64,000 bases of DNA from Perkinsus olseni (taxonomy: Eukaryota). Position 1 is the stretch's first letter. Each line of letters opens with the position of its first letter. Location: positions 1-64,000 of the forward strand of contig JABANN010000057.1 in assembly GCA_013115125.1 (NCBI GenBank), given 5' to 3'. The position numbers were made by a program, and so were the translations under genes. Positions 11,510-40,209 of the stretch are shown here, one piece after another. The notes beneath the pieces were generated by a model that saw only the letters and a program-made list of their open reading frames with translations, was not told the origin of the DNA and ran no database searches.

Positions 11510-11710
11510 TATTGCATTCCATCAGGGGCACCACCGTTCAAGGTCTTGGCGCCACAAAGGGCGAAGCATTGGACTAATCTAATTAGAGAGGTCATGTCCT
11601 CTGGCCGCCCGCCTTCGTTATGACCAGCCACTGCTGTTTCCGATGGTCGTGGCTCTGTTGTATTGTCGGTCGGGGATTGCTTTGCAGTGTGTGATCTTCC
11701 TACTGCTCTA

Positions 11711-17961: not shown

Positions 17962-18045
17962 CCAAGTGTGATGATGCCGTGCCCCTCGCATACTTGTCAC
18001 GCTTGGTGCTTCACGGTGGTGTTGTGGCAGTGTAGCTGAGCTAGG
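17962..18045 (+). ncRNA. Possible box C/D snoRNA
   Basis: GTGATGA at 17968-17974 and CTGA at 18036-18039 with a weak terminal stem; target not established. Confidence 0.25.
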
Positions 18046-18097
18046 TAGTAGTGATTTCAATTCGGCGCGGCTCTTGTCCGTGAATCGAGAGCTTCCT

Positions 18098-19069
18098 ATG
18101 TGGTGGTGTGATCATGGCTTCTCCCTAGAGTATCGTATACCCTCCTTATAAATGACAGGCTCCCCCAGCAGGAAATCGAGGGCTGTGGCTGGCCGCTATC
18201 CAAGGTGAGACGAAGAAGTGTCGGCTTGCGTTACTCGTGTCTTAAAGGTTTGAGCTTCGCGATGACCACAAGGCGGAGCTGAAGGAGGCCTTCGATGTCT
18301 TTGATAACGATGGTACTGGCACTATTGATGTCAGGGACCTGCGCGTGGGAGAGGGCTCCCTGTGTCAGCTGCGTTGGCAGTGATGTTGTCCAGGTTGCTT
18401 TGCGGGCCTTGGGGTTCGAACCTGAGAAGGACGAGCTGAAGCGTCTGGTTGGTGGGGCTTGGGGAGTCGCTGAGGGGCTGAGGCAGAAGCTCACTGTGCT
18501 TCAGGGAAGCACACGAGGCATCCGGTGCCGAGGCCCGCTACTGTAGGGGAAGAGTCGACGACTGGTGATAAGGAGCCTGAGAAGCCTCGATCCCGGCAGC
18601 AACAGCAAAGGGATCCCTCGACGCAGCCGACCCCGCAAGATGCTGAAGAGAGTAAGCCTCAGGAGGGGGAAGGGGAGGAGGCGACCGTGCCGGAGCCTAC
18701 CAGTGAGTCCAGCTCTGATTTGGTGGACGAGTGGTATGTGTACTGCCGAGGCACACTGGACTTCCATGAGTTCCTCGAGATCATGTTGGAGAAAATGACC
18801 GAGAAGGATTCGAAAGATGAGGTTGAGAAGGCTTATGAGATGTTCCGAGGAGAATCTGGGAAGGTGTCCTATGATGACCTCAAGGCGGTGGCGGAGGAGC
18901 TTGGTAGGATCTGCCGCGGGTGGGCGAGGGATCGGGCGGCTTAGGTGACCGCATAGCGGAGGAGGAGCTGCGGGAGATGATTACCGAGGCCGATCTGGAT
19001 GGAGATGGGCTGATCAGCCAGGAGGAGTTCATCAGAATCATTCTCAAACCCGGTAGTGGACCATTATGA
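18098..19069 (+). CDS. Centrin-like EF-hand protein with a long low-complexity insertion
   Basis: [33 protein letters not shown] ... TLDFHEFLEIMLEKMTEKDSKDEV ... ELREMITEADLDGDGLISQEEF; start codon uncertain. Confidence 0.85.
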
Positions 19070-19230
19070 GCATGGGAGGGACTGAAGTGTTGGCAGCGAC
19101 CCTTTGGTTGCGTTAGTAATGTTATACCAATCGGCAAGGGGAGGACCTAGTCGAAGCTTCGTGGTTTTCGCTAGTTCGCGGGTCTCGGAAGACGAGAGGG
19201 AAGGCGGGGTCAGCCTTTTCGGAATTTCCA

Positions 19231-22200
19231 ATGACAAATGCGGCAGTTAGGCAGTGGTTGGCGTCCGATGGGGACGAGGAGGAGGAGGAGGAGGAGCAGG
19301 ATATCGAATTGGTGACTATTGAGAAGATCATCAACCGGGCCGCCAGAGGGTAGCTTCGGGAAGACAGCAGGCCCATGGATATCCCTCATGCACAGATTGC
19401 GGCGTTGGTGCGTGGAGGATGAGGGCGAGAAGAAGGTTAGGAGCTTACTCGAAGTTATCTGGACGACTTCCATGAATTACATAAAGCGTCAAGTTGTACT
19501 CGGCAAGATGATTGCCCTGCCAACATTAGGTGCTGTGGGGGAGGGGTCAGGCGTTCGGGCCAGGGGAGATGTCAGGCACCCTCTTCACGAGGGAGGGAGT
19601 TCCCTGCATCGCCTTCGCTGAGCGGCTTATTCTCGACTATGGTCTCACTTACCTGCCGGGAGAGAGCTACTGTCTCGGACTGGTAGTAAGAGGGGTTGTC
19701 AGGGTCGTACGGGAGGAATGGGGAAAGCCCGGTGATGACAAAAGGCATTCCAAAAGACCCAGTATTGTACCGGTTGCCCGGGCAGCTGTGGTATGATGAA
19801 GCATAAAATCTTTAGTAATCTGATGAGGGTTGAGCATACCGGTCTGTGATGATATAAGGCGAATCTGTACCCGATCTGCTGTCCAGAGTCGAGGTATGAT
19901 TAATGGAATTCTTTAGTAATCTGAGACGAACGCCGTACGGAAGGCCATCGAGCGGCCTGTGTTCAACAGATTACTTTCCGTATCAGGTTGGCCCAGCGAC
20001 CCGTATAGCGTTCGGTGTTGTGGCGGAGCTCAGCGGTCGAAAGGGTGGGGATACCGTGACAGCGGCCATGGCGGAGGAGGGGTTGAAGCGTGAGCTCTTG
20101 CGGCCAATGGGAGTCAACTGCCTTTTTGCAGCGCGGTTGGACAGGTATATTTCGCGAAGCAGCTGAAGCGATGTCGATGTACCGTACTGATGTGACTATG
20201 GTATTGGAGAGCATTGGCAGAGTAGTCAGCCGGAATAAGGTCGTTGGGTGGGACATGCGGGGGAGGGCTGCTCTGGATGAGCAGGCCAGCTGGTAGGTTC
20301 CAACCTTTCGTTGAGTATGGCGCGGAGAGTGCTCGGGGAGGTAGGGGGCCCGTCGGGTTTTATTGGCGATGTGGTGGCTCCCTAGGTTCTGCGTTGAGGT
20401 CTCCGATTACACTAAAGGGCCTGGAACGTTATCACCGGGCTAGACAGAGGTCTGCACGGGGTCTGGAATTGGAAGATGGAAAGGTGGGGAGTCTGCGGTT
20501 TGATGGAGCCGCTCGTCACTTCCACGTCATTGTAGGGAATTGCCTCCCATGGTGGAGCTGGTGGATTGTATTCCGGTTTGGTATCACCAAGTAGTGGGAA
20601 GGGTACGAAAGGTATGGTATGAGCATGCGTACGGTCGTAGGTAAAGCACTGGTTCCAGCGCTTGACCTGCGTAGGAGCTTCCGGGCTCGAAGATATACCA
20701 ACCCGCAAGGCGCGTCGACTCAGAGGAGTCATCGCACAGAGTAGGGTGGGATGCTGTCAGCGGGAGGATCGTTTGAGTTGGTATAAGGTTCTCGGACATA
20801 GTTGACTTGTCGTCTCGAACACCGGGTGCTCCATCGACGCAAGTTGAAGGCCACAGCATGGACTCCTCTATTGTCGCTAGAATTGGCAGCAACTACACCC
20901 CTCTATCGAGGCGAATGTAGGACGGCAGGGCGAGACTTGTAGTACTTCACAGCATAGGGTCGCGAGGCCGGCCCGATCCGGTGAGGGCCTGGCTTGGATC
21001 CCTGTGGAGGCATCTATGCTGGGGCAACGGTTCATGCCGCTGGACGCGCCGTCTACGGAGTCCGGTGGAGAGGGGCGGCTGGCTCGTCAGAGACGACCGT
21101 TGGTGAGTGTCTGGGGGTATCCAGGTCAGGTGATACTCAGGCAGGTATTCGGCAGCCGAAAGCTGCGGAGGGCAATGAAGGACCTTGGGCACAGTCAGGA
21201 GAGTCTGCTGGAAAACTTCAATAGGTAGTATGGTTCCTGGGCTTCTAGTAGGAGCCTTCTGCTCAGGTATGATAGCTATCTTCACTCTGCTGCCCTCGAG
21301 GCCTGTATCTCGCCTGTGGATGCCGGGTCGCTCGGTCGTATTGAATCGAAGATTTGCAACGGCTCCTGGTACGGGTCGATGGGCGTGCATGAGCGAGAGA
21401 GCATCAAGAGCGCCCTCGAGGAGGTGACGAGAGGGCATGAGAGTGTTGGTATCTATGCTTGTGTGCAGCTGCGGGCCGAGATCATGGCGCAGTACGAAGA
21501 AGCTGTCCGTCGGGCGGTTGTGGATTACCTCCTTATGGACCTGCGTATGAGGGAGAGGTGTAGAGTCAGCTTCGTTCCTGTGGTGAGTGGAGATACTGTC
21601 GATGGCGAGTTCGATGATTATGGACTCCTCAGGTACGCCCTGCTTGGGGAACGAAGGCATACTACGGGATTGGGGGCAGGGTTGGAGGACCGCCTGCTGA
21701 GTGGGAAGTGTCGGTTGCCGGGGCGTAGGGCTGGCCTGTTGTGATGGTGGGGAACGAGGTCATTGGCTCAGGTTGGACTCGATGCAAAGTCCCTTGCGCA
21801 GTCTTCACGTTCCCTTCGCCGCTCTGCTGAGCCTGCAAAGGCTGTGGGCCGAGTCTTATGCTGCGGTGACTCTCAATGATCTAGCAGGTGATGGTGAGAC
21901 CAGGCGATTGTAGCGTATCGTTTTTGATCGCAGGAAAGGAGCCGGTCCGTGTGGAGACGTTCTTGGATTATCAAAGCTCGAGGCGGGACGAGAGTCGCCG
22001 GGTACTTAAGGACGTATGGATGAGCGCGGTGATTGACATCATATCACACGACCGGACGCTGATGACATTACTAGAGGACGAAGGCTCGGATGACGAAACG
22101 AAGAGGAGGAAACTGGGGGTGATCACGGCCGTCCTGTCGTCTCATCTTAGACGGTAGGCTCCCTTAGTGCATGGGGTAGGATGGCTCCACTTAGGTTGGT

Positions 22201-25200
22201 GGAGGTATCAGCTGGGGAGTTTATCAAATACGTGTTGCAACACACTTCACCCTTGTGCGGCGGAGTGGCGGTGGTGACGCCCGAACGCGCGGCCTGGGAG
22301 CTGCATGCGTGTCAAAGGGACCTCTGTGGCACCGTGGGGTAATAGGGCGCCATTGTCCTCAATCGCAGAGGGTCTCTCGTGCAGAGGGCCGCTGCCGATT
22401 CCACGGGCATTCCTGGAGTTGAGGCTGATCGCGGAGGGCAGCGCCATCGCTTTCACAACGGAGCTCGATAAAGTGCCGAGAAGGCTGGCGAAGATACTCC
22501 CTAGTATGGTCTCCGCTGTGAGGGGCTTGCCGAGGCCTGAGAGGAAGCTGCCAATGAAACCGAAGGAGTCCTCAGAGGCGGACTCGGAGGGGGAGAGTAC
22601 CAATGACCAGAGCGAAGGTGGGGTCGAGGCACCATGCAGTGCGTCACGGCCGAGAGAATGAGTAGATGCGCCGATGGTCGAGGAAGTCGGCGAGTTGTGG
22701 TATGTTGACGAGGAGGAGCCACTGATTCTTGCGGGCATGAGAGCGATCGAAGAGTCCGTGACAGTGTGCGCTGAGAATGCCGAGGGTATCGCGAGGCTTT
22801 ATGAAGGGTGAGTGTGCGTCAGGCGGCATTGGTAACGCGCTTCAACCTAAGATACGTTGATCTTCTGACAGAAGAGGACCGGGCTCCTCAGTTCATGGTG
22901 AGGGTTTTGGACACCAGTGATCGCGGAGCTTTCGCGAGGAAGGTGGGGTCTGGGGTGAAAGTCTGTCCCTGCTAAGCTTTGCGTTAGATACGGGACCTGA
23001 CCAGTGTCGAGGCATCCCTGCTTGACCACTGCCCATCCGTCCTGGACCTTCAGCTCTTCCGTATAGACTCGGGGAGGTTGCATGATTCCTTGGTAGCCGC
23101 GGCACGAGCCGGGAAGGAGGCTATGAGGGAGGCAGTAGTAGAGAGGAACAAGGAGCGGTGCATTCATGTACTTAAGAGGCTGGAGGAGTTGGCGGTGAAG
23201 TTGAGGAAGCCGGCCAGTACCGAGGCCCAGCTTGCTGCATTAGAACGTACGTTGGGAGGGCTGAAGAAGGAGGGGTTTTTGGCTATGTTTGAGGAATTCC
23301 AAGAGTGTCTGAGATGGCAAGATGTACTATCCGACCTGGACCTAATTGTGGGCCCCGAGGAGCTGTCGTTGGTGTATGAGACTGCAGTCTGGCTCCGCAA
23401 GATTGAGCGGCTTTGCAGCGAGCGAGAGGATGGGCTTCTGAAAGAGCGCGAGGTCTTGGAGGAGAAGTTCAGCGCAACGAGGAGGAAATTCGAGGCTCAG
23501 TTGGAGGGAGTGTGTAATGCCGTCGACCGAGTTGAGGAGCTTGGTACTCTGCGATTGGCGGAGGAGAATCTCGGGCGTGTTGCCGCGGCTAGAGAGAAAG
23601 TAGATGGGGCTGTGCGTGAGGCTGCTAGAGTGAATGAGAAGGAGGTGGACCTGGGATATCCTGTGAGCCCTTTTGAACAGTTGAAACAAGTAAGACTCCA
23701 GTACAGCGACATTTTTCCTCTCCATGTGGATAATTTGGCAGGCGGTGGCTGGGCTGGAGGCTTGCGAGAAGTTGTGGGGGTTAGCATTTGAGTTCAACAG
23801 GGACCATCAACAGTGGACTCGAGGGCCGCTGTTTTACCAAGAGCCGAAGCTCATCGACGAAGCTTCATCGCGGATGCTCAACTTGGCCAGCCAACTAGAA
23901 GAGCTCTTCGCTGAGGATACCCCTCCCCGTGGGGTCGTTGCAGCGATGAAGTCGCAGCTGGAGGAGTTCAGAGAGAGCTTGCCTTTGATTCGGGTTGGAG
24001 TCCATTTCCGGGTGGTCCCTATGCAGCTCAGTGGCCTCAGGTCCTCTGCTGGAAAGGACTTGCCGCGAGACACTGGGAGGAGATATCGGACGTCGTGGGC
24101 TTCCACATGGAGCCAGACCCGACCTTCACTTTGTCTAGGATACTCGATATGGATGTGGGGAAGCATGTGAGAGGATAAGGCTAGCCGCTAGCCTTCATAG
24201 ATCGCTATTTGTGGATTCTTGGTTCAGGTGTCTGCTCTCATGGCCATCGGTGAACGTGCTGCTGTAGAGTCGAGAATAGCAGAAACGCTCAAGGAGTTGA
24301 AAAGACAAGCTGCTGAGCCCACTCTGAAGGCGACCAGATTCGGCTGGACTTCTTCTTTTGTGAGCTCTGATGTCGTCTATCCGGGCGGAGTATGTCCTGA
24401 GTCGTTCCAAGGTCCTGTCTCCGGACTCCGTCCGAGCTGTGAGAGGTGCCTTAGCGGACCACCTACTGCGGCTGGACGGCGAAATAATGAAGGTGGCTGG
24501 GGCTACTGAGGTCCCCGGGCTTTCGGAACTGAGAGGTCGTCGTGAGCGGACCCTGGCAGTGGGCGGGATCATTGATATGTGGGTGGAGACCGAGAGGGAG
24601 TGGAAAGCGCTGCGCTATGTCTTGGATGGCAAAGGAGCTGATGCTGGGCTTCCTGGGTTCGAGGATGAGCACTTCCAGTGTTTCGGTGAGGTAAGAAGCT
24701 AATGAGGTGGACCATTGTGCGGACCCTCTTGGGGGTGTGTCCGCGTCCAAATTCGGCGGCCGAATCTAGTGATCTGTGAAGTTCACAGATCGCTGGATTC
24801 GGGTTTGAGTGAACTTCATCGTCTTCAGTATGGGTCTTTCAGGAGTTGAGCACTCGCGTAGAAATTGTTCTCTGATTCGCTGTTGCACACTACGCCAAAT
24901 ATGAGGATACTCGCGGTAGTGTGGGCTATGGGTAGGTAGATGAGCGTTGGAGAGAGCTGATGATGAGAGTCCACGACTCACCTCTGACGGTAGAGGATCT
25001 ACTGAAGAGCGGCAACACTGTTGCCGATAAGCTCAGGTTTGTATCTAGGAAGCTCGAGTTGGTAGGGCTCGGAGTTTCTCCGTGTGTGGATGTGTGTTTG
25101 GCAGTTGTCTCCAGCATTAGGGAAGTACATGGAGGCCAAGCGTCATCAGTGCCCACGCCTGTTCTTCCTATATGGGGACTCCGAAATGCTCAACTGGCTG

Positions 25201-28200
25201 GGTAGTCGATCGGAGGACCCCACTATGGGTCAGCATGCTTGGAAGCTCTTCGGTGGAGCTGAGCGCCTCTGGGTTGACGAGGGTCGGGTTCTTGGCATGG
25301 AAGCGGCAGGAGGATCTAAGTTGGAGTTCGAGGAGCGTGTGGAAGATAATGGGGATGTGGCCGATTTCGTACGATGCTTGCAGAACGCTATGCAGTCTGC
25401 GATACGCTCGGTGGTACTGCGGGTTTACCGAGGGAAGGCTGTCGCCCAACTCGGGGAGGATATCCCGGGAGAACCTCTTCAAGTCGTGGAGTGCTCGAGC
25501 GAGGTCAGCTGGGCAGCACACATCGAAGGGCTATTGCGGGCTGAGGAGCTGGAGCCTTTGAGGGATTACTGTGGACGGCTTGCTGAGGCCCTCGGCGCTG
25601 TAGTGGCTTCAATCCGGAACGGTACTGCATCACCGGCGGGGCAGCAAAGGCGCCTGGAGTCGCTTGCTGTGATGACCGTGCAACATCATGATGTTGTTGA
25701 GAGACTGTGTGGTGCAGGAGAGGGGCGGGTCTTCTTCTGGCAGTCGCAATTGAAGTACAGCATTGACGAGGAAGGCAGGGCGTGGGTGGAGACACTGGGG
25801 TTCAGGCAGCCGTACTGTTATGAGTACATCGGAGAACGCGGGAGGATGGTCATGACGCCGACAACACTTAGAGGGTATCACACCATGTTTCTCTCGCTGC
25901 GATCTTTCCATGGGACCATGATTGATGACAGGCCGGGGTCAGGGAAGGGCGCTTTGGTTAGGGACCTCTCCCGAGCATTAGGGCGGCCATTATTGGAGCT
26001 TGTCTGTAGTGAGCGGATGAGCTTCAGCCTCATCGAAAGGGTCCTCAAGGGTATGGCGGGTGGTGGCGCCCTTTGCCTGGTGAAAGATGCTGATAAACTT
26101 ACTGGGGAGGTAGGCGGGATGTAGGCTCTGGGAAAATGAGAGGATTTTCTTCAGGTACTGCCAGGGCTGTTTGACACGCTGCATAGGATATGCTCGACGG
26201 TGAGCTGCGGCGAGTCCGAGCTGGTCTGCAGTGGAAGGAGCCTCCCCCTGATGACAACTTTCGGCTACTTTCTGACTGTGCGTGATCAGCGCAGCTTCGC
26301 TCAGTGGCGGAGGAAGACGTGTCACCTTCTACGACCGTTGTCGAGGGTAGAGCCTGATATACAGACCGTGGCGGGCATAGGGTTGAGGATGGCTGGTTAC
26401 TCGCGGCCATGGGAACTCAGCAGAGGGCTATCGATAGTACTGCGCGCCAGTGAGCACTTGATGGGCTCAGGCGAGAGTCGGAGCTGCTGTGTAGCTCTAT
26501 TGAAGAGGATATTGGAGAGGCTCCCATCGCAGGAAAAAGCTTCCATGGGATTGCAGGGAGAGGTAGTCCGCGCTCTGGAGGATGTCCTGTTGCCGAGGCT
26601 GCGTAATGCTGGTGACGCTGAGCTTGTGAAGAGTCTCGCCAGGGAGCTGCTCGCTGGCAGCCCGGTCGAGTGCTCCGCAGTAGTGGCCGAACCGGACGTC
26701 TCACAACATAGCTTTGATTCTAAGGCGGTGAAGCTCTCGGATATGTTGGCGAACAGGAGGGGGGTTTTCGTAACGGGTCCGCCATGTAGCGGGAAGAGTA
26801 CGATGATCGCTGCAGCTGCTGCTTTGAGTGGCCTATCCTCCAGTGCTGTTTTCACGGTCTGTGCCGGGGCCTACTGTGCTCAGGAGATTCTTGGTAGCTC
26901 CGTCTGGGGCAGTGGTTTGGTCACCTCCTTACTGCGAGATCATGATGAGGGCCCCGTGTGGATCGTGCTGGACGGCTGCCCGGTGTCTGCGGTTGAGGGC
27001 CTCGCGCTCTTGCTAGAGAACGGGAGCCATGCCCTCCAGTCGGGCGATCGAATCAGAGTCAACCCTGGTGCACGGGTCCTGTTCGAAGTGCCGGACCTAG
27101 GGCTTCTCTCGCCCGCGCTGGTGGGGAGGTGTGCTGTGGTAGCTCTAGGCGATGAGCTCACCTGGGCTATGGTCTTGGATGGCTGGTGTCCTGAAGGAGG
27201 GGACACTGACGTTGTGGCCGAGGTTCGGGAGGGTGTGAGACGCTTCGTGCTGGGGTTGGAGGCAGCGCAATCAGCAGAGAATGGAGGCATGCTGGATGAA
27301 ATTCCTTTGGGGCTCGTTGCCAAGAACAGCTGCAAGCTGGCTTGGGCTCTTCTGCCGGAGGCGAGAAAGTAAATCAATAGGATCCACAGGGTGGTCGACA
27401 GACTCGGTTCTCTGTCTCAGTTCGGCATCGGCCGTCGCAGCAGGTCAGCAGAGGAGCGCGGCCCCTTTCGACGGTTTTGTACAGCGAACTGTTATGTGAG
27501 TGGGGGGGGCTACTGGGGGCGTTGGAAAGACTGTGACCTTCCTCTCGCGTGGCTTGTCAGGTACGCTGCAGTGTGGAGTGTGTGCAGCTTTTTGGGCAGG
27601 GCTCTCGAGGACTGGCATCGTGTGGAACGGGTGAGCGGCTGCTGGTCGGACAGCCGGTAGGTCATCTCAGGTTATTCGAAATATTGCTGCAAGGGACTGT
27701 CTGGGTGCTGAGCGGTCCGACTGCCACTTGGCAATGCCTTCTGAGGGGTAGGTGCGCTTAGGCTGGCTCCCTAGGGGGAGAATCGGCTCAGGTCCCTCTT
27801 TGATTACATCCCCGTGATGGATGCTTCCGGGTGGTTGGCTTGCCGCTCGCAACTGAATGGTGGATGCAGGCTGCTGCTGCTCCCAACGGCTCCACAGGCT
27901 GGAGCCTTGGCGCTGTTGCCTCGCCTTGCTGCCTCGAGCGAGCGAATGTGCGTAGTACTGCGAGGCCCTCGAGGGTGTGGCAAATCTACCATCATCAGTA
28001 GCCTCGCGGAGAGGCCATTTGAGAGCCGCTACCGAGACAGGTAAATCACCGCAGTCGGCCGGAGTATCATCTGAGGGAGGGATCCTAGGTTGATGATAAT
28101 GACCACAGCTGCGACAGGCTCGAATGATATACAGAAATGCCTTGAGGAGGGAGTGGTGAAGCGCACCCGAGGTGGCGCCGCGCCTTCCCAAAGGGAACAT

Positions 28201-31200
28201 GGGCCGCGAGCAGATACTTTCGGCTCGGCTGGTGGGGAGGGCACAATGGTGGTGATAGAGGATTTGCATTTGGCCAAGCAGGTGGAGGGAGTGCAGCCTG
28301 CGGTGGAGTTCCTCAGGGGGGTGGGTGATGGAAATCGCCCTTGAGCGACTGGCTAATGATGCAGGTTGTGATGACGCGAGGATGGTTGGATCGATCAGCG
28401 TGGCGCAGGGTCAAGGTTGAGGGTAATGTTCACTGGGTCGTTAGTATGACCTCGCCACTGAACGGGGGGAGTGCTGGCCAGTCCCAGGGCTTCGGGCCTC
28501 ATAGTAGGCTCTTGAAGGACGCTATCACGGTAATGATGCTGAGAACACGAGCGTTCTGCCGCTGCTTCGTTTCTGAGTAGTCCTATTCAGATCGGCCTCC
28601 CAAGCGTATCCAATGCAAGCATGGAAGCCATCTACAGTGAAGTGATATCTCGCGTTTTCTTGAGGGGTAGTGTCGTCTCTTGGCCGCTGGCTTGACCACC
28701 CATTCCTCAAGGTTCCGGTGAGTCAACCGCCACCCTAAGAGGTTCCACTGGGCTGGAAAGTATCTCTAACGTCATCAGAGTGTACGGCTGGATAGGAGAG
28801 AAGGACTGACTTTCGCTTTTGCAGGTATCGTGAACAGACCGGCCCTCTCAGCACGAGTATGTGGCGATATGAACTTGGCCGCACCCTTGAGGCCTGCTCG
28901 CTTGGGGAGGGTCAGGCTTTGATCCGTGAGATACGAGATGATATCCTTTGCGGTGCGGACGGAACGACTGACGTCCTCGAGGGCATGTTGCCGGAGCAAG
29001 AAGATATCACGGCTGTGGTGGAGGGAAAGTTGGAAACATTCCGCTCTGTCACTGATCTCTTGGAGTATCTAAGAAGGAAGCTGGCTGGCACAGCGATGAG
29101 CTCTTTTGCCTTGTGGCCAGACATGGTGCGGCATAAGTCCCGACTCGCTGCCCACCTCCCCTTTCCAGGTCAGGACGATCGCTGGCTTGAGCTGTGTGCT
29201 CACGAGAGCTAATGGCCACGTTACACTGCTGGGCGAGCAGCCTGGCATTGTTGGCAAGGCTGTTGTCGTCCGACTCACTTGCTTCCTTGCTGGAGTGCAG
29301 CTACAGGAGCTGGATGCCTCCGATCTCGCAGAGAATGTGTGCTTGGAGGAAACAGCTGCCGTGGTGGGCTCGAGGAGGGGTCATCGACTCAGAAAGTACA
29401 TCTCCCTCAGTGCTCGACCGAGGTGGTAGTGATGATCCGGAACTCGAACGCCCTCACCAACGGGGCGTTGCAGAGCATCTCGCGCCTGACGAGCATGGTG
29501 AGTTAAGTTGATCAGACACAGTGGCTCCGGGTTCTGTAGGGCCGAACGAGTCGGTCGACGGGCAGCGATCATGGTGGACAGGGCGAGGCTAGGTGAGGTA
29601 ACCCTCTAACAGGCAGAGGCGGATGGGAACCTGTGTAGAGCGGGTAACGTCCACGTCGTGCTGTGCGTGGAGACGGCCGAATCTGGCCTGTTGGAAGCGT
29701 GGGCGCGGAGGTTTCCGGAGATACTGAAGACCTGTGTGAGGCTGAGGTACTGAACTCTTGCGAGGCGAATAGAGTCGGAAATCGCCGCTGCTCCTAGGCA
29801 AAAGACGTGGACTCAGGACATCCGCCGTATCGTGTTGAGGGCAAAGCTTGAAGCGGTCGCTGGGCAGTTCGATGAGCTTCATGTAAACGACCTCGCCAGG
29901 CGTCACAGTCGCGCACTTGCCATTCGCTTGGCCATGTTTAGATTGGCAAGATGATTGACGCCTTCTTGGCCGTGGCTGAAGACGACCGGCATTTGATGAC
30001 GTTATTAGAATGCTTCAGTCGCCTCTTCCTGAGGAGGAAGAACACTCTCGAGGAGGTGAGGTTGGGCCTTCACCGTCCCCCTCCTCGAGCTCAGTGTGCA
30101 GATGCTCACCGGCGCCCAGGACTGTTGCGATCGGCTTGAATGTATCGTACAATGGATCGAAGGGACGAGGGAGCTTTTCGCCGGTGGGCTCCAGCCACAC
30201 GCACTCGGCCTACTGACGGACAGAATCCACGCTGTCGAGGGGGTGAGGCTCGCGCATGACGCCTCTCCGAGTAGACGTCTGACATGCCGACTTATCAGAG
30301 TGTTGATACCGCCGTGGCAGCTGATGCTGCGGAGAACGCTTGGCCCAGCTTGGAGGCGGCAGAGGCTGAGCGAGCCCCATCTGAGGATGCACTTGCTGGT
30401 CCGCGAGGAGGGTTGGACAGGGCCAATAGGCTGACCGAGGTGCTTACCGTTGGCCCATGGTCACAGTTCATTACGCTTCGGACCATGTTGGTCCTTGGAT
30501 GGTTGGCTGTCGCCCCAGGTTCTCGAGTCTGCCCGTACCGCTGTGTGGGAGCCTCAGCGCTCCTTCGCCGAGGCCAACCTGGTGTCTCTGGCTGGCGATG
30601 CGCTGCTCTCTGCATTGCTGCTGACCTCACTCGATGGGGATGGGGCTGCTAGTCGTGTCCATGGCATGGAATCTTGCAAGGTCTTGATGGAAAGGCTTGG
30701 TATACCATACGACCAGGACTACTCACTGGCGAGGTTCACGTCAAGGGAGGTAGGCCAGGCTGCCGCTCTGGATGCGACGAGGAGGCTGCCAGATCAACGG
30801 AGTGCGGAGGGAAAACCCGATGTATAGCGGGCTCCTCCGGGCTGCTGTAGTAGAATATATGGTGAAGACTGGAGCTGAACGGGTACTCATTGCGGAGCTA
30901 CACGGGCAAGCAAGGCCGCCCCGTTGTGGAGGAGACTCTGTTGTTGTGAGGGGCGAGAGCCTTCCTGAGATCAGCATGAGAAGGAGTCTGAATCAGGTTG
31001 TCTCCGCTACCTCTCGGGACCTTCAGGCGACTTTGAACCAAGGAGTGGCCTCTGGAGCCGACATACTGGTAACGAACATCGGTAGGCAAACCCGAGGCGT
31101 GAAGGTTGCCGCAGCCTGTCGATATAATCAGGGGAGAGAGTCGGATCTGTAGTACAGGAGCTACGATCCTTGTCCACACTTGCTGAGGAGGGCGGGGACG

Positions 31201-34200
31201 GTACAACTGCGTCGAGGTAGGACTAACATGAGCCCCCTACAGCACGGCCGGGTCGTGGCCAGCGAGGAGCCCTACTTCATAACGCTGGAGGGTATAGTCA
31301 TGCCGTGCCCTCTTTTCTCAGGGTCTACATCGTGATTGATCGAGCATCGCGTCCAGTCGATGTGGCTGGCTGTGTGGGCGATGGAATCTCCGCGGTCGAC
31401 TTCTCGCTCGACAATGCTGCCATCTGTAGTTGGCTTCTGCATGCGGTAATATCATGGCGGTGCTGCTTCACCACCACCGAATGCCGTATCCCTCACCGTA
31501 GCATGTCCAGTGCGTGTGAACAGTTCCCTGCATGGAAGAATTGGAGGGGCCATGACGCTCACGCAGGTTGTGGAGCAGAGTGCTCAGCCGCGAAGAGAGA
31601 AACCCGAGGCGAAGAAGGCTGCTAGCGCGTCCAGGCTGACTGAGCTGCGAGGAGCTTTGCCGCGCATGGTACTTGCCAGTGACGAGACTCTTTATGACGA
31701 GGAAGAAACTGTGACTCGCATGTGTAACGAATGGGTATTGCAAAGCCTTCGGTCATAAGGGGCTCCGATGCCCTCACGGAGCTCTCGCTGCAGGCGAGAT
31801 ATGCGAGGAGATAACGCAAGCTCACCAGCAGCTGGCGGAAGAATCGGTGGTAGAGGTGAGAGTATCTACTGAGTCGTATGGGAGGTACATCCAAAACGGC
31901 TCGCCGTGTTGTCCTTACCCGACCAGCTGTGTCAGCTGTCTATGCTTGGACTAGGTACGAGTGGCTGGTGCGAGGTCTGGCTGCAGTTTACGGAGTAGTT
32001 CGCTTGATGCCCAGGCTAAGCGCTGACTATTGGTAGTCTAGCTTTGGGTGGTCACTCTTCCCTGCGTTTCATAGCTCTCGGCGGCGTCAGGATTCCGCCC
32101 GGCACCTTCGTCACCTGGTGTAAGGAGGGATTAGGGGACCGAGCTGGAGGTCCGGATGGCGATGGCGCCAATGCCGAGCAGCTGAAGCTCTGCATTAGCC
32201 ACATCTTGCGGATGCTCCTCCTCGCATGCGACAAAGTGAGGTCCTCATTTTAGTGGGCTTAGATGATAGTGGTCTTGTGGCATCGGTATAGTAGCTGTGT
32301 TTCAGCGTGACCATCTCGTACTCGCTCTAGCGGTCACTCTGGCACTGGAGTCGCTGAGCGGGCCTCAGTCAGATGTCTACCATCAGTGTTTGAAGTTCTT
32401 ATGCGGCGAGAGTACAGAATCCTGCGGGGAATCAAGTGAGCTACGGCAAGCTGATCTCGGTTCCGCCGGCCGGTATTCCTGCCCGGGCTCCTCGTTTCGT
32501 TTAGCACTGTTGTGGCTCGGTTAGGAGAGAGCCTCCCTGAGGACCTGAAGGAGCCTAGCGAGTGGTTAACAGAAGCGATATGGCGCAATTTCAACCACCT
32601 GTGAGGCTGGCAGAGGTCCCGTCAAGTTTGACCGGATCTGTGCCGAATCTCTTCTCAGCGAACGGCTCGGGGGTCCCTTGCTGAACATCACGGCGAGCTT
32701 GTGTAAGGATCCGGCGCGATGGAACTGTGTGAGGTGCTCTGGCTGCGACTGGCCTTGCCAGCTCAGTGACGTCGAGAAAGCTGTGGTTTTGGTGGCATTG
32801 GACAGTGACTGCCTTGTGAGATTGGCTCCATCAGTGGCCGCCGGCTGATGAGATCCGCCCCTCAGAGTGCGCATTTGCAATCACTCGTCTCAAAGGAATG
32901 GGACCTGGCCCTGCCATTCACCAGAAGAGACCTGCTGCTGCAGCTGACTAGGTTACCTCCCAGGGTGTATCCGATAACTGTGCTCTATGGGATAGCAGCT
33001 CGACTGCAGTACAGCATGGATATAGTGCAGAGAATATTGGTAGGGCATACCAATACTACTGGCAGCCAGTGGAGGAATCGTATCAGGATATTCCACCTGA
33101 GAGAGTGATGGAGGTCATGTCGTTGGCCAGCATTGAGGAGTCGCGGCTCGAGGGTGTCGTCACCGAGGCCGCAAGGTGGGGATACGTGACAGACTTCGTT
33201 CGGTGTCTCGGTTCTACGGCGGCATCTTCCACACCTGAGCAGCTAATGTTCGACCTTCTTAGCTCCGGTCGTGTAGTCTTCCTGCGGGACGCGGATTACG
33301 GGGTGAAAGCCTTGCTGGCGATCTGTGAGGCTCTGCGAAAGCTCAGCAGCGGTGTAGAGTCGAAAATCGCGGAGGGCTTCCGCATCATCCTGACTGTTGA
33401 CGATGCATCAGTGCTTCCAAGCCAGGTGAGGGCCAAATCGACCGAACCACCGGGTCCCAAACAGGGAGGGGATGCTCAGGTACTGGAGCATAGCGTCAAA
33501 GTCTCGGTGGCAGATGGCTGGGTTACGGATGCAGTTGGAGAGTGCCTGTAGGGTATGGGTGAAACTTCTCTAAGAGAGACATAGCTAGAGTCCTGACCGC
33601 TGTATTGACTTGGTCCCACCGCAGGTCAACTCGAGAGGCCTCCAGAGGTTGTCGGCGACGGGAGCTCGACCGCCTCGTTGACTTCCATTTGGCTGTAACT
33701 GATCCTGGGATGAACGCCGTGGCTAGGTACGCCCTCGTCTCCCGTCATTGCCTAGTCGTTAGCGAGAAGCAGTCATGTCTGCGCCCCAGATATTGCCACC
33801 CGCTAACAGAAGCAGATCTACGAGTAGCCGGGGAATTGCTCCTATCGACTGGGCCGAGCACAGAGACTGAGATACGCCAGATGGACTATCTCATCAAGGA
33901 CATTGTCTACGGCAGCGGGGATCGGATGCCTGACGACGAGGATGGCTGTGAGTTTCGGTCGTATCTATTCCTCGTTGTACGCCCTCGAAGGCCTCAGCTC
34001 CTCATATAAGGCAGCTTCGGTCCCAGCGCGGGTCTCCATAACTGCTGGAGTGGAGCATGAGTGAGACTGGCAAGTACGTAGGAGGGAGGAGCGTCTTGGT
34101 TGTTATGTAGGTCACCCGGCGCTCGGAGCTCATTCCCGAACGTGAGGAGACGCTGGGGGGAGCGGGAGGGTACCAGGCTGTGGAGTCGAAGTGGTTGAGA

Positions 34201-35185
34201 CCAGTTCCGTTGATTCTCATTGTAGGAAAGAGGCTTGCAACCCTTCTGGGTATCGACAAGCGACGGATAGTCGACCCCGTACACAGCAGCTCACAGCTGG
34301 GACCCGACCTCCCTGCTTTGGCGGAGGGTCTGAGGCGCGGCTATCCTGATCGCCGGTGGGTGTCATATTAACGTGGGTGAGACTCGCGGCCGAGAGATAG
34401 TGCAGGTTGGATGGCAGTATCTTTGATCACATCCTGCACGCTGAATGCGAAGACTTCGATTGTGCCTTGGCGGAGATCTCAGTGGATAACCACGGCTGGA
34501 CAGAGGAACAGAGGTCTCTCCAAATCCGTCTTATGAGCGCACAGGAAAGATTCCTTCGACAGTGGTACCACTTGGTTCAGCCTAGCATCATGCTCATTCT
34601 GCCATCCAGGATCGAGTCGGGACCACCCAGGGAGTGGGCGCTGGGCCTCCTCTCGCGACCGGGTCGGCTCCTGATTGCTGTGCTTGCAGCGGCCAGGTGT
34701 GACGTAGGCCAAGGGGAGTTGGTGTGGAGGTTGAGCGCGGCATCTGCGGACACTTCCCCTACTTCGGCGGAAGGTCAGACTAGCGGACTCATCGTGAGTG
34801 CCCTCCAGCGATGGCTGATGAGTGTTTTTCACGGTTCCTCTCACTATTAGATAAGTGCCTTGCATGTGGTGGAAGGCCGTCGGGGTTACCACAGTAGAGC
34901 GACGGGGAGCATGGAATCGCTAGAGGAACCCGCATACCGGCTGCCTGCCATGCTACTGCGCCCAACAACGCCGCCACCTAGAAGCACCTCTCAGAGCACA
35001 GAGGAAGGCATTTACTGCACTGCGATCGTCTCGAGGAATCGCGGGTCGATTGGAGTGGCCAGGCGCCGCTGGTGGCAACTGGTTTTCTCAGGCACCTCAT
35101 AGACGTCGAGCTAGCAGTTGAGGACGGCGAAACGAGGATCCTGCTCCCCCCGATGGGTGCCTTCATCCTCCTCGTCACCCCATGA
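19231..35185 (+). CDS. Highly divergent axonemal (inner-arm-type) dynein heavy chain-like protein; exons at 19231-20900 may be a separate gene
   Basis: Tail motif YEEAVRRAVVDYLLMD; linker YMEAKRHQCPRLFFL; FFWQSQLKY; YCYEYIG..RMVMTP; P-loops GPPCSGKST and GPRGCGKST; SLAGDALLSA; C-terminal LIDVELAV...GAFILLVTP*. Confidence 0.9.
19728..19829 (+). ncRNA. Intronic box C/D guide RNA predicted to target U5 snRNA Cm45 (U85-like), copy 1
   Basis: C box GTGATGA 19732-19738, C' ATGATGA 19793-19799, D box CTGA 19820-19823. Guide aaatctttagtaa is complementary to U5 UUACUAAAGAUUU. Terminal ccc/ggg. Confidence 0.8.
19842..19927 (+). ncRNA. Intronic box C/D guide RNA predicted to target U5 snRNA Cm45 (U85-like), copy 2
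   Basis: Terminal stem gtct/agac; C box 19846-19852 followed by tataaggcgaa; C'-like ATGATTA; guide tctttagtaa; D box 19921-19924. Confidence 0.8.
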
Positions 35186-35212
35186 TCTCCTAATTCCTAT
35201 GTGACATGTGCC

Positions 35213-37356
35213 ATGTCGTCTCCTGATTGCCATCTTTCGTTGCGGTTGAGTTCTCCTAGTGTTATGACTCGAAGGGATGGGACAGGTGGTACATTTTTGG
35301 TCATCACTATGAGACCGCAACGGCCGCCGCCGCCACCACCGCCGAACCATCGAACAGAGATCGCTTTGCTGGTCGACAAGGCAATTTCTGTATTGCAAAG
35401 TAGGCCGGACTGGGGTCGTTCTGCATGGATCATCATCGCTCGGCTGGGGATGGATGTGGTCGTTTCAGTGACGATATCGGCCTTGGCTCGGGAGAGGGAC
35501 ATCCTGGATGATGAGTGGCGGAGATTAGGGGAGACTCAGGAGCACGAGGGACTCTCTGCCGTCCACGCTCACACCATACCAACAGAACCCTCCGCTGAGA
35601 CTGACCACGTACCCTCTATTGAAGATGGGGCTGTAGGGTTTCGATGCTCGAGACTGCGAGGTGTATGGCTATGGCCCAGGTTAGCGTGTCGGACCTCCTG
35701 CCACCTGCACCCCAGGGGAATGACCCTGTGTCAGCAGCAGCCGCTGTCGCTGCTATAGACTTCGACTCGCACGCTGCAATCTCCCCTATGAGAGCAGTAG
35801 CGGCAGCGGCGGCAGCTCAACAGCTTTCTTCTCGCGGGCGTGGGGGCCGCAGGTCTAGTGGAATACCTGGCGTTAGCTGGCATTCTCAGACAGGTAAGGG
35901 CATCGGTGTCACTGTCTTACTCAGGGTCCCGCGCTGTAGGTCGCTGGGTTGCGCGCTGGACCGGTGACGACAAGAAGGAGCACTCGAAGGGGTTCTCAGC
36001 CAAGCGACACGGTGATGCCAAGGCCCTTCAGATGGCAGTCGGTAAGTGATGAGTGGGAAGCTACTACTGCCCCTCAGAAGTGCTTGCTTAGCCACTAGAA
36101 GAGCAATGCACGTTCGAGCCTCGGACCATTCTTCACCAATCGGTGAGGATGCCGCCATGACCCCGCCCTCTGAGGGGTCGGAAGCGAACGAGGAGCCTGC
36201 TGCTAAGAGGAGTCGTGACGAAGGGCAGCTATGTACTTACTCTGTGGTCCCTTGGTGGTCACGCCTCCTCCTCAGACGAGACAATATCGGCCCTAGCTCA
36301 ACTGGCAAGTGACCCCGTTCTCGGGCATCCAGGCCCGCCAGAACGGTTAACGACGGTGGAGGATTGCCTCGCCTTGTGTGACCTTGGCACTGTAATACAC
36401 CACTCGGTTCCTTGTCGCCGGAATGACGATCTTATGCTGTTAACAGTTGGGGTCGCATCCTCTCACGCCAGAAGCCGAACGAGAGGTCGCCGAGGCCGTG
36501 CTACCTCCCCTCCCTTCTGGGGCTCATGCCAGTACGGACCGACCCAGCGGAGTGAGTCTCTCGTTGACGGTGTAGTATTGCCCAACGGGCCTGCGCTGCT
36601 CAGGTACAAGGCGTGACCTGGCATCCACTCAACCGCACATGGGCTACACGGTGGCGGGAGTCCGAGGGTCAGCAGCGGAGCAAGAGCTTTGCGGTGTCCA
36701 AGTATGGAGACGATGGAGCCTTCAGACTCGCTATCAGACTACGGAAGGTAAGCCGCTGTTGACGCATGCATTCAGAGGTGACTTGAGGAACTCCTTTCCG
36801 CGCCAGTATTGAAGGAGTGACAAATCGATGCTGCTGGTTTGTCCTAAGCTACGATGTCTTCCTTCAGCTCCTAGAAGATTTGGGCTTCGTCTCGCCGCAC
36901 CTCGGTCGACCGTCAGAGCGAGGCACTCCTCCACCGGTGGCGTCTCTCCCGAGCACCGAGGCATGGATACCTAGTGCCATGCCAGTGGTGGCCGAGGAGC
37001 AGGCCTCGGACCATGCGGCGGCGATGCCACATCGTGGACCTGGTGCTAAGATGAGAAGTGGCGTCCCCGGCGTGACTTGGAACGAGACCTATCAAATGTG
37101 GGTTGCGAGGTGGCGTGAGGAGCCTAAGGGTAGGCTGATGTCTGTTCTTCCGAGGAGCCCGTGAGTTTTAGCCTCAGGTCGAGAGAACAGTCGGACATTC
37201 TCGGTGAAGCAGTATGGAGCGCATGAGGCCTTGCAAATGGCAATTGATTATAGACGAATGATGGAGGACGTCGGAAGGGTGTGTCTCCCGAGAGGAGCAA
37301 CATCTTCGGCGGCTGCCACGATGGCACATCACGCCGAAACTGCAGAAGACGATTAA
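35213..37356 (+). CDS. ApiAP2-type transcription factor with three AP2 domains
   Basis: SGIPGVSWHSQTGRWVARW...KGFSAKRHG; YKGVTWHPLNRTWATRW...KSFAVSKYG; SGVPGVTWNETYQMWVARW...RTFSVKQYG. Start could be 35213, 35264 or 35309. Confidence 0.9.
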
Positions 37357-37463
37357 TGAACAATATCATTATCTTGCCTGAGCCGTACGAGCTCCGTCAC
37401 TCTTGCGTTTGAAAGGTTGGAGACAGAGTAGGGTGTAGCATCAGCCTACTGTTGTGCCTTGTT

Positions 37464-38332
37464 ATGTCACGACTGAAAGCCAACCCACGGATAAAGAGTA
37501 GGCCGGCGGATGATAGAACTCAGCACCACTACGGCTTCGCGTCACAGATGATCCGGTCGTGAATCACTTGGTCAACGCGGCACCATTCTACGACGATACG
37601 CTAGTCCCAGATTTTGCAGTAGAGAACAACACAGCGATACTCTACACAACGTAGGCTTTTGTGTTTCCCATCTCATCGCTAAGGACTATCATTCTAGGTT
37701 GGGCACCTACCGGCGAAAGCGAGACGAGCTGCCGAAGCGCGTTCGCGATCTGGGCCGAGTGAAGCCGCCGTACCGTGTGAATGTCTTATTGTGTTTGGTA
37801 GCAGCATCGGGCGCCACGCCTGCGTTGTTGTCATCCCTCCTCCTTCAGGTTGATATCCCTGCTGCAGAGGCCGGGGAGTGCTTAGAGGCTCTGAATCTCA
37901 TTGCCGCCAACACTGGCCTCTCCCTGCTTCTTGCCTGGTCTAGCGTGGAGGCCTCGCGTTATGTTCAAACCTTGTATAAATATCAAGGTGCTCTCCTCGA
38001 CATCGAGCGCTGCAGCGTTACGATCAATTCAATGGTATTTAGGCAAAGAAGCATCCATCATCCGAGGGGTGCATCGCGTGGCTGCCGACGACTTCATGGG
38101 TCGAGCAAGAGAGGCTCTGACCGCCGTTCGTGGATCTGCAACCAGGACTGATGTTGAGAATCTTTACAAACGCTTCGGGTACTGTGACTGCGAAGAAATC
38201 AGCAGTGTTGGATGCTCTCTCAGGACTTTCGCTGGTATCGTATCAGCAACCAAAGGAGAAGTGATGCAGATACACGGAATAGGAGAGTCCAAGGCCCAAG
38301 TATTAGACCGCTGTTTCAATGAGAAATTTTGA
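37464..38332 (+). CDS. ERCC1: DNA excision repair protein ERCC1/Rad10
   Basis: LVPDFAV, RVNVLLCLVD, LLLAWSSVEASRYV, and C-terminal HhH motif IHGIGESKA. Confidence 0.85.
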
Positions 38333-38487
38333 TAACCATTTGACCATATTCTGAGGCCATGAGTTCTTCGTCGTGTTGTGACGGTGCGGTCGCTTGCTCG
38401 GTTCGAATCGATTACCCGGGCGAGCGCGTATGCGATTGCTGATGATGTCAAGCGTATTGCTGTTTTGATCTTTGCGGTTTGCTTACT

Positions 38488-40209
38488 ATGGCTTCTTCTC
38501 CGCATTTGTCATCTTCGCGAAGGTCGTCGTTTATCAGTCACCAGTTGACACCTAGTGACCTGTCCGTAAAGGCAACGCAGGCTTCAGGCGAGAGCTCGGA
38601 TTTACCTACCGAGGATGGTTTGAAATGCAGCAACGCGGCGAGAGCGGCGGAGGCAGAGGCTACATTTGGCATGCCTACAGCATCTCACAACGGCTTTGGT
38701 CTAGACGATTCTGATTCGGCGTTTGGTGGATACCATGATAGCGTATTTAGCGATCTGAACATGCGGGTGTCAATGAAGAACTCTTTCTTGAACATTGATG
38801 AGCCCAGCGCTGGTGGTCTTGACGATTTGGCAATGCCAGAGCTTATCCGAGGGCAAACAGCACCTGGTATATTTCCCTCGGGCAGGCGCGCCATCGACTC
38901 GCAGTTACCTACTAATAGCTCAGAAGTGCCTTTGATTGGTTTATCGTGGGCTCCGGTGATGCATTCCGTCCCGGAAGAGCCTAGTAGTTGTGACAATATT
39001 CTGGCGTCACACGGTGGTTCTCTCACAGATGCTCACTCTAACTCTGACAGTTGTGAGTCTCACGAGTTAGCTGCCACGATATCAGCAGCCTTGGGATTGG
39101 AGAACAGCAGAGACTCTGACGTTGCTTCTATCTTGGGCGCTGCTGCTGCAGCAAGAGGTGACCAGCCAGGTGAAGACATGGACTCTTTGAGGTTGCAGAA
39201 CCAAATCCTGACTAATGCTCTCTTCTCTATCGCTGCGGCTAGTGAAAGGCAACAGCAACAACAACATGGTGGTGGTTTTCATGCTACTGACGGTACTGGA
39301 GTAGCGGATGGTAGCTCTCTAGCGCCGACTCATTCTCTGTGCCCGAGTAATAATCCTCCGAGGATTATCTCTGTGCCGGCCAGTGGCGGTAAAGACCATG
39401 CTCGGACGAGCGGCTCTGTATCATTACTTCCGCAGATGGGAGTGTCGGTTGGTCCGCCCCCTCCGCCAGAAGAGGGTGACGATGATCCCAACAATACGAC
39501 TGTTATGTTGAGGAATATACCCAACAAGTTCGACACGCGCTCATTAATCGAGCAGGTGCATCTCATGGGGTTTGAGAGTACCTTCGATTTCTTCTATCTA
39601 CCGATCGACTTCAGAAACAAGTGCAACGTTGGCTATGCCTTCTTGAACTTTCGCCAACACTCAAAAGCTCTTGAATTTAAGAGGGCTTTCACGAATTACA
39701 GATTGCCAGCCCAGAACTCTCATAAGATCTGTCAAGTGTGCTGGGCACGCGTGCAGGGTTTTGACAAGAACGTTGAGCATTACAGGAATTCTCCTATTGC
39801 TGAAGAGTATAGGCCGTTGATTGCCGATGCTCAGGGCCGATGGATACCTTTCCCTAAGCCCGACCCCCATGTAGAAGAGATCATCCGTTCCCGTTTAGAA
39901 CAGGAGGAGACGGCAAGAGCATCGGGTGGTAATAAGAAGGGCCATGGTTCAGCATCATCTAAGGGTAAGGAGAGCCATAAGATATTTATCGGCGGCTTGG
40001 GGCGTAGTACTACCAGTAGCGTTCTCCGAGATCACTTCTCAAAGTTCGGTGTGGTCAAGGATGCGTCAGTGGTAATGGATCGGACCTCTGGTAAGAGCAG
40101 AGGCTTTGGTTTTTGCCTCTTCGACCATGACGTCCCCAAGTCTGTTTTTGAGACGTCCCATGAGATTGATGGTGTGCCTGTGGCGGTGAAATATTACTCG
40201 TCTAATTGA
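38488..40209 (+). CDS. Mei2-like RNA-binding protein (Mei2 RRM plus an extra canonical RRM), intronless
   Basis: TTVMLRNIPNKF...FDFFYLPIDFRNKCNVGYAFLNF...ARVQG, then KIFIGGL...KSRGFGFCLF. Confidence 0.92.
   Translation: MASSPHLSSSRRSSFISHQLTPSDLSVKATQASGESSDLPTEDGLKCSNAARAAEAEATFGMPTASHNGFGLDDSDSAFGGYHDSVFSDLNMRVSMKNSFLNIDEPSAGGLDDLAMPELIRGQTAPGIFPSGRRAIDSQLPTNSSEVPLIGLSWAPVMHSVPEEPSSCDNILASHGGSLTDAHSNSDSCESHELAATISAALGLENSRDSDVASILGAAAAARGDQPGEDMDSLRLQNQILTNALFSIAAASERQQQQQHGGGFHATDGTGVADGSSLAPTHSLCPSNNPPRIISVPASGGKDHARTSGSVSLLPQMGVSVGPPPPPEEGDDDPNNTTVMLRNIPNKFDTRSLIEQVHLMGFESTFDFFYLPIDFRNKCNVGYAFLNFRQHSKALEFKRAFTNYRLPAQNSHKICQVCWARVQGFDKNVEHYRNSPIAEEYRPLIADAQGRWIPFPKPDPHVEEIIRSRLEQEETARASGGNKKGHGSASSKGKESHKIFIGGLGRSTTSSVLRDHFSKFGVVKDASVVMDRTSGKSRGFGFCLFDHDVPKSVFETSHEIDGVPVAVKYYSSN

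Follow-up and report, generated by a model that had tools for sequence, protein, structure and literature searches.

A dynein heavy chain of Perkinsus olseni lacking most AAA1 catalytic residues and the microtubule-binding domain: a probable non-motor dynein

The dynein heavy-chain gene and its transcript

The window, a 64,000-nucleotide stretch of Perkinsus olseni DNA (assembly GCA_013115125.1, contig JABANN010000057.1, positions 1 to 64,000 of the forward strand), carried a whole dynein heavy-chain gene on the plus strand at 19231..35185. The gene, all features of which are given on the plus strand, ran from the ATG at 19231 to the TGA at 35183-35185 through about 72 exons and encoded about 3,880 amino acids, with its start and C-terminal exons based on a gene model. 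The public Perkinsus olseni model P0005 matched 18152-35182 in 78 exact segments with 4095 of 4097 residues identical, and the source records named the proteins nearest to the window dynein as Perkinsus olseni. The first 222 residues of P0005 corresponded to a centrin gene with its own stop near 19070, and the dynein start was therefore taken at the ATG at 19231. The fusion of centrin and dynein in P0005 was not accepted, given this stop and the depth of RNA run X7 at 19144, within the joining intron of the model. Another model, P0218, merged the AP2 gene downstream and the gene following it into the dynein. The dynein part of P0005 lay in 72 exact-match segments without a stop and contained the odd AAA1 motifs described below; the last third of the gene rested on this model, in which a few long introns may conceal exons. 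No second copy of the gene was found in the genome among the at least 19 matches of 24 candidates.

Run X7 was spliced RNA, and its contigs fell in all 30 bins of 18000-37500. Over the dynein region there were 39 contigs, 38 of them at 99% identity or higher, with one base change in total. Among the joints listed, those with GT..AG ends in the tail were at 21581-21632, 21724-21772, 21883-21930, and 22152-22194. A 45-nucleotide GT..AG intron inside AAA1 (26110..26154) contained both in-frame stops of the Pfam AAA_6 match. The X7 depth was 5.32 at 26100, 0 at 26122, and 5.32 across 26153-26863, and one contig was equal to 26153-26863 without any difference, which indicated that this intron was spliced out and that the odd sensor segments were present in the transcript. 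An earlier reading made from the letters of the window alone (the sequence-only reading) had described long open exons, in agreement with the 72 stop-free segments. The comparison of RNA and DNA runs covered four of the eleven runs listed, and contig depth was not taken as a measure of expression. Runs X10 and X11 yielded nothing within the dynein gene beyond short pieces that were unspliced, and were not counted.

The AAA1 catalytic site

The AAA1 domain (25813..26724) kept its fold and lost its catalytic residues. Pfam AAA_6 matched 25813-26799 over all 327 of its positions (E 1.5e-27, 100 bits; best paralog, 498 bits). Walker A (25927..25950) read DRPGSGKG in place of the canonical GPAGTGKT, with the lysine kept and the Mg-binding Thr/Ser replaced by Gly. 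Walker B (26080..26097) read VKDADK in place of FDEFNR, with the Asp replaced by Lys and the catalytic Glu by Asp, and the Asp site held Lys, Arg, or Thr across variant models. Sensor I (26272..26289) read LTVRDQ in place of ITMNPG, with the Asn replaced by Arg in the window and the site occupied by Arg, Ser, or Gly across variants. Sensor II (26479..26499) read RSCCVAL in place of YDYGMRA, and its Arg was replaced by Ala in the window and in three of three variants. The G-x-G-K core and the lysine of Walker A were kept in the window and in all three variants covering the site, as was, in the window, the arginine finger of AAA2 facing AAA1 (LVGRC, 27118..27132). From the AAA1 residue set of an active motor (K-T/S, D-E, N, and R), only the lysine was left. 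AAA1 is described in PMC2533788 as the main hydrolysis site, the mutation of which abolishes motility.

All four segments aligned on the canonical motif columns in a profile of 37 dyneins, and the structure that AlphaFold predicted for a close variant put the segments of Walker B and sensor I where the expected strands end. The six AAA1-AAA3 motifs named in the sequence-only reading were recovered as given and colinear on the plus strand, starting at 25927, 26080, 26272, 26479, 26776, and 27964, with the profile columns in agreement. The term "dismantled", which that reading had used for AAA1, was too strong for Walker A, whose core and lysine were kept, as was the arginine finger. No canonical motifs were restored by better models, as both P0005 and the X7 RNA carried the odd ones. 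Mis-splicing was rejected as their source: a single 1,005-nucleotide exon held Walker A and Walker B, the following exon held both sensors, and the RNA agreed.

The search of the genome for AAA_6 gave at least 46 matches on 14 contigs. All 13 of the other dynein loci were canonical (GPAGTGKT, [FL]DEFNR, TxNP, and YDxx[LM]R), which ruled out a genome-wide trait or chance. An IAD-1alpha-like paralog, L038 (G000:C1914), showed sensor II as YDFKLRA and an odd AAA3 P-loop in merged pieces, which may be an artefact of exon merging.

The AAA2-AAA6 ring and the stalk

The P-loops of AAA2 (GPPCSGKST, 26776..26802) and AAA3 (GPRGCGKST, 27964..27990) were kept, as the sequence-only reading had stated, and were nearly invariant across the variants. 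AAA3 was matched by Pfam AAA_7 (residues 2458-2588), and its Walker B read VIEDLH. The P-loop of AAA4 was degenerate (GEQPGIVGKA, 29232..29261), with its lysine changed to Glu in variant P0222. The stalk was reduced to a stub (29993..30585), from which about 200 residues were missing, among them the microtubule-binding domain. The interval between the end of AAA4 and the point where the second stalk helix ends measured 137 residues in P0005 and P0222 versus 324-352 in 18 other dyneins; in this alignment (A5), variant P0004 ended early. The DNA of the stub, only 593 nucleotides with three introns, was too short for a stalk, and PF12777 (MT stalk) matched 10 other contigs and none of its matches lay on the contig of the dynein. 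The coiled-coil stalk with a microtubule-binding domain that belongs to an active motor was thus not present in the window dynein.

Pfam matches on P0005 comprised DHC_N2, AAA_6, AAA_5, lid, AAA_7, and Dynein_heavy; among the matches listed (25 of 33), there was none for the MT stalk, AAA4, AAA5, or the C-terminus. The Dynein_heavy match (residues 3616-3700, E 6.4e-6, below the cut-off) marked an AAA6 remnant at 33108..33503. The dynein family profile scored 898 bits for residues 531-2644 and 46 bits for residues 3174-3800. Tail, linker, and six AAA modules were found in the order of the dynein family, AAA4 as a fold in a model and AAA5 weakly. The linker-AAA3 part of variant P0001 was predicted with a mean local confidence (pLDDT) of 79.3 and template modeling (TM) scores of 0.58-0.83 against solved dyneins. 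The model of P0222, of low confidence, contained an AAA4 fold and helices 408-458 and 513-561 around a short uncertain loop.

The N-terminus, the tail, and the placement among dynein classes

The N-terminal region encoded tandem HU-CCDC81-like domains (19297..20309; model residues about 240-410, with the join in P0005 model-based). A profile built from the N-termini of relatives P0154, P0235, P0236, and P0055 (Achlya) scored 20.4 bits on residues 223-415 of P0005, versus 3.2 for the best of 500 shuffles. These four relatives had N-terminal Pfam HU-CCDC81 matches, one of them over the cut-off; Pfam alone did not detect the domain in the window dynein, including the two single HU exons. HU and dynein were joined in P0005 and in the relatives, and no X7 RNA piece among those listed spanned 19700-21700. 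In the HU region, an X7 depth spike of 193.6 with adapter-like loose ends was seen at 19302-19952; it may stem from a small RNA or a short repeat within a 304-nucleotide model intron. The same genome held a separate HU-CCDC81 gene at L031 (G000:C3013:26491-26715; PF14908, E 1.7e-6).

The single-headed, class-7-like tail (21001..23689), four introns of which were spliced in RNA, was followed by the linker (23742..25812), formed by DHC_N2 (residues 1289-1698, E 1.3e-52) and the following helices. When tail residues 560-1290 were compared with 251 proteins using phmmer, the top rows were P0236 (195 bits), P0235 (190), P0154 (159), and Achlya P0055 (46.5), the next non-HU row reached 31 bits, and no DNHD1 row was among the top matches. 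The search of the ESM Atlas with the tail fragment returned generic dynein-tail clusters only. DHC_N1 was absent among the Pfam matches listed for P0005. The best matches of P0005 and P0235 in the PDB were class-7 chains of the DNAH3/DNAH7 type. Like the single-headed dyneins of the inner arm DNAH3, DNAH7, and DNAH12, which gave the best solved-structure matches, the window dynein had a tail without DHC_N1; unlike it, these three are active motors with a canonical AAA1 and a 340-residue stalk interval.

An IQ-TREE mixture tree of tail and linker (31 rows, quick search) grouped the window dynein with P0154, P0235, and P0236 (support 98), inside a set with the DNAH3 and DNAH7 rows (100) and away from DNHD1. 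A grouping of the window dynein with DNHD1 was rejected on these data by the approximately unbiased (AU) test (p 0.018). Achlya P0055 stood apart in the free tree, and holding the five HU-bearing rows together was not rejected (AU p 0.136). None of the trees contained a labelled class-9 row. Two motor-only trees pointed the other way: the window dynein joined DNHD1 in a linker-AAA3 FastTree of 77 rows (0.93), and in the AAA1-AAA3 mixture tree it was one of the long branches that, with DNHD1, made up an open group (87). These joins were flagged as meetings of long branches, and after removal of 12 long rows the window dynein shifted back to P0154, P0235, and P0236 (0.93). The best reading of these sequence comparisons is that it belongs with the HU-CCDC81-fused class-7 dyneins and not with DNHD1, probably as an extreme case within a protist dynein lineage that has received little study.

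Graded loss of AAA1 residues in the relatives

The relatives showed different degrees of AAA1 loss. The sister rows P0174 and P0109 kept K-S/T, DE, N, and R; their resemblance to HU was seen by eye but did not reach significance (-0.4 bits at rank 11; 4.3 bits at rank 1 of 301), and Pfam gave no match. P0235 had lost the sensor-I Asn, and P0154 (LANFDS), P0236 (LDDVSS), and P0055 (LDAHNL) had lost both the sensor-I Asn and the Walker B Glu, with sensor II lost as well in P0236. All four HU-bearing relatives therefore lacked at least one AAA1 catalytic residue and had full stalks. All six relatives kept K-S (K-S/T in P0174 and P0109) and stalks of 331-342 residues. In Perkinsus these residues were gone together with the Mg ligand, the sensor-II Arg, and the domain that binds microtubules. 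This series rests on the sequence states of six relatives, and no order of loss was inferred from it. In a set of 217 rows, 21 non-Perkinsus rows did not pass every AAA1 test, some of them through gaps. Missing AAA1 residues were observed in the heavy chains P0230/P0142, P0137, P0089, P0135, P0023, P0038, P0108, P0121, P0175, P0181, and P0213, which included Gefionella, Mesostigma, insects, and a bird; the state is not rare, and dyneins with a dead AAA1 may be widespread.

Variation and integrity of the gene

Six variant models differed from P0005 at 5-14% of the protein, with 426 distinct substitutions; P0004 (likely a mosaic), P0218 (near-identical), and P0223 (same type as P0002) were left out of the substitution counts. 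Where the gene still had the dynein consensus, 7 of 136 columns varied, versus 229 of 1150 elsewhere (Fisher p 3.6e-6). With the amino-acid type controlled, 7 variable columns were observed versus 21 expected, and none of 10,000 permutations was as low. Of the conserved dynein columns already lost by the gene, 33 of 135 varied. This sparing of conserved residues indicated that the dynein gene was constrained, though loosely. If neutral, 426 substitutions would bring about 20 nonsense changes; one skip possibly concealing a stop was seen, in models that are stop-free by construction.

In DNA run X8, 37 of the 40 listed base differences (1,935 more existed) were scored as 12 non-synonymous, 10 synonymous, and 15 non-coding. 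The ratio of non-synonymous to synonymous polymorphism (pN/pS) was 0.48 on the 22 exonic sites and was not significant alone (p 0.07). Of the 12 listed indels (109 more existed), eight lay within the gene, seven of them intronic and one a 6-nucleotide in-frame change. Across 18000-37500, X8 gave 402 contigs, 233 of them less than 95% alike, at depths near 16, 32, and 49; its pieces differed by 2-13% in the dynein gene and by 2-3% in the AP2 gene, which suggests multiple DNA types at the locus, through polyploidy or deep haplotypes.

Damaged variants of the gene may exist. P0002 and P0223 skipped 40 residues at the start of AAA1 via a predicted 120-nucleotide intron, which may conceal a stop. 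In P0004, an apparent frameshift cut the model short within the stalk stub, and two segments were skipped; it looks, however, like a mosaic that combines the P0001 and P0003 types, each of them intact at the first skip of P0004, which points to an assembly error. One X8 contig skipped 31845-31946, overlapping an exon end. The marks of a pseudogene named in the sequence-only reading were not found: spliced RNA was present, P0005 read open throughout, and the variation was non-neutral by the conserved-residue test.

Interpretation and alternative explanations

Judged from its sequence, the window dynein is very probably not a motor. Both the AAA1 site and the microtubule-binding domain were missing, so that neither AAA1 hydrolysis, nor a powerstroke, nor a grip on the doublet would be expected. 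The non-motor pseudo-dynein proposed in the sequence-only reading was supported in this respect, and strengthened by the missing stalk, which that reading had not included; its role as scaffold or regulator is a matter of interpretation. We consider it reasonably probable that the gene encodes a transcribed and selectively kept pseudo-dynein acting as a non-motor scaffold or place-holder. It would have originated from a single-headed class-7 inner-arm dynein with two N-terminal HU-CCDC81 domains. The class-7 tail may dock near the basal body or at a single-headed dynein site of the axoneme of the zoospore; among the stages of parasitic perkinsids, it is the zoospore that has the flagellar apparatus (PMC5029502). 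The ring would fold and be held shut by nucleotide without turnover at AAA2 and AAA3, and perhaps at AAA1, where the lysine and the arginine finger are kept. The HU pair may bind partner proteins, and the overall role would be that of a place-holder or scaffold instead of a force generator.

Several points weigh against this interpretation. The variants were 5-14% apart, versus 15 of 693 residues in the neighbouring genes, and the constraint was loose. The region from AAA4 to the C-terminus was almost unrecognisable in sequence (best 18-20 bits), and the P0222 model of it was weak (pLDDT 55.8). A profile search of 1.84 billion representatives gave 1562 bits for the Perkinsus olseni cluster and at most 209 bits for everything else, generic dyneins, with no orthologue found between the two. 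The spliced RNA was that of a single run from a single study, and none of its contigs covered the whole gene. The HU exons were joined to the dynein by model P0005, the one that also wrongly fuses centrin. AlphaFold tends toward the closed state for any dynein, and the higher TM scores to the ATP and phi states are thus no evidence of locking; the TM ranking was not used. Models of this kind also entered the DNAHX study.

The fusion of HU-CCDC81 to Dynein-VII in ciliates and oomycetes, on a six-AAA dynein and with a proposed role in cargo binding during transport, has been reported (Burroughs et al. 2017, PMC5499826); the passages of that paper considered here are silent on AAA1. The window dynein resembles these fusions in carrying an N-terminal HU-CCDC81-like pair on a class-7-type chain. 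It differs from the HU-CCDC81 relatives, which keep the stalk and part of AAA1, by the loss of the whole of Walker B, of both sensors, and of the microtubule-binding domain. We tentatively suggest that the HU-CCDC81-fused class-7 dyneins of stramenopile, alveolate, and rhizarian (SAR) protists could be a third independent non-motile lineage, disarmed stepwise, with Perkinsus as a minimal end state, a ring without a stalk whose docking tail would occupy an inner-arm position; this broader proposal is possible but falls short of probable.

A first alternative is a relic in decay, in which Perkinsus no longer has a use for the lineage, and the open frame and transcription of the gene persist only because the relaxation of selection is recent or because selection against misfolded product is weak. 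A branch longer than any other in all trees (6.54 in that of the motor), the pN/pS of 0.48, the skip in P0002/P0223, the frameshift of P0004, the X8 contig lacking part of an exon, and the failure of any orthologue from other Perkinsus species to surface in the homologue searches are consistent with it. However, about 11.6 kb of coding sequence was open at about 25% identity to canonical dyneins, where a neutral gene would have gained stops far earlier; the conserved residues were spared, the listed X8 indels within the gene left its frame intact, and the frameshift of P0004 resembled an assembly error. We regard decay as unlikely.

A carrier or inhibitor like DNAHX appears somewhat more doubtful still. 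In that case, a pre-powerstroke ring would pair with active single-headed dyneins and keep them off during assembly or transport, with the HU pair as a cargo adaptor. DNAHX is described as non-motile by cryo-EM, animal-only, and absent from protists (Chai et al. 2025, 10.1101/2025.01.18.633724). In that study, it keeps ATP in a non-hydrolysing AAA1 and forms a heterodimer. The window dynein shares with it the loss of the Walker A Thr, altered sensors I and II, and an impaired stalk and microtubule-binding domain; it also keeps the lysine and the arginine finger, and HU-CCDC81 has been proposed as a cargo-binding clasp (PMC5499826). Unlike DNAHX, which derives from the outer-arm alpha chain, exceeds 5,000 residues by insertions, and keeps Walker B, the window dynein is a protist protein with a class-7 tail, about 3,880 residues by deletion, and a lost Walker B. 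Moreover, phi pairing involves stalk crossing (10.1101/2025.01.18.633724), whereas the stalk here is a stub, and single-headed tails lack the dimerisation region, in line with the absence of DHC_N1 among the Pfam matches listed.

A nucleotide sensor or slow ATPase on AAA2 and AAA3, signalling or remodelling via movement of the linker or ring, would fit the intact and nearly invariant P-loops. This is very improbable, however, as AAA2 lacks the catalytic Glu in dyneins generally (PMC2533788), the AAA3 Walker B reads ED with no Glu at the catalytic place, and DNHD1 rows have these P-loops as well, with a structural role being enough to explain them there.

The sequence-only reading had compared the gene with DNHD1-type proteins. 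The analogy stands, as DNHD1 (Kollmar class 11) likewise combines an AAA1 without catalytic Walker B with kept AAA2 and AAA3 P-loops, and its AAA1 is described as poorly conserved and without Walker B residues (10.1101/2025.01.18.633724); the shared state does not imply a shared origin. That the window dynein is a protist orthologue of DNHD1 is hardly credible, despite the two motor-only joins, in view of their long branches, the AU rejection on tail and linker, the missing DNHD1 rows among the top tail matches, and the presence in DNHD1 of a stalk match (P0064) and no HU pair.

In PMC5100056 (Kollmar 2016), class 12 is holozoan and has an outer-arm tail and a stalk without the typical microtubule-binding site, and divergent dyneins are considered to be located where their tails direct them. 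The window dynein is like these divergent classes in keeping the tail of an ancient class. ATP sites were not analysed in detail there, and "Perkinsus" had no occurrence in its main text and searched supplement. Within the open-licence literature, no paper on the window gene or on AAA1 loss in HU-dyneins was found; subscription papers were not covered. Non-motile dyneins (DNAHX by cryo-EM, DNHD1 by sequence) and the HU-dynein fusion are already published.

The idea of non-motile heavy chains is recent, shown so far in animals for DNAHX and suggested for DNHD1. The window gene, which is disabled twice over, hints that such a chain arose separately in protists, out of an inner-arm dynein of the single-headed type. 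The absence of some AAA1 catalytic residue from all four HU-bearing relatives calls into question the published cargo-carrier idea for the HU-CCDC81-dynein fusions. Relatives with stepwise losses allow one to ask in which order a dynein motor is dismantled and what job remains, and the graded series, if true, would show a dynein role apart from making force. The finding has little practical weight, and no phenotype is known.

Neighbouring genes in the window

A tandem-repeat open frame on the minus strand (2323-3336) had units like GHQPRKVKGIATFLS and no Pfam match. An Armadillo-repeat gene with an Arm match, presumably importin-alpha-like, lay at about 11700-13100 (plus strand). Directly upstream of the dynein was a centrin-like EF-hand gene (18152-19070, plus strand) with a long low-complexity insert between its EF-hand pairs, which public models fuse to the dynein. 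Some single-headed dyneins have centrin as a subunit (PMC5100056); the adjacency is curious and may be due to chance. Right after the dynein stop followed a multi-AP2-domain gene (35284-37352, plus strand), spliced in three runs, and an ERCC1/Rad10-like gene (37552-38430, plus strand; Pfam PF03834). The long open frame at 38446-40206 (plus strand) had RRM_2 and RRM_1 matches, and we take it to be Mei2-like.

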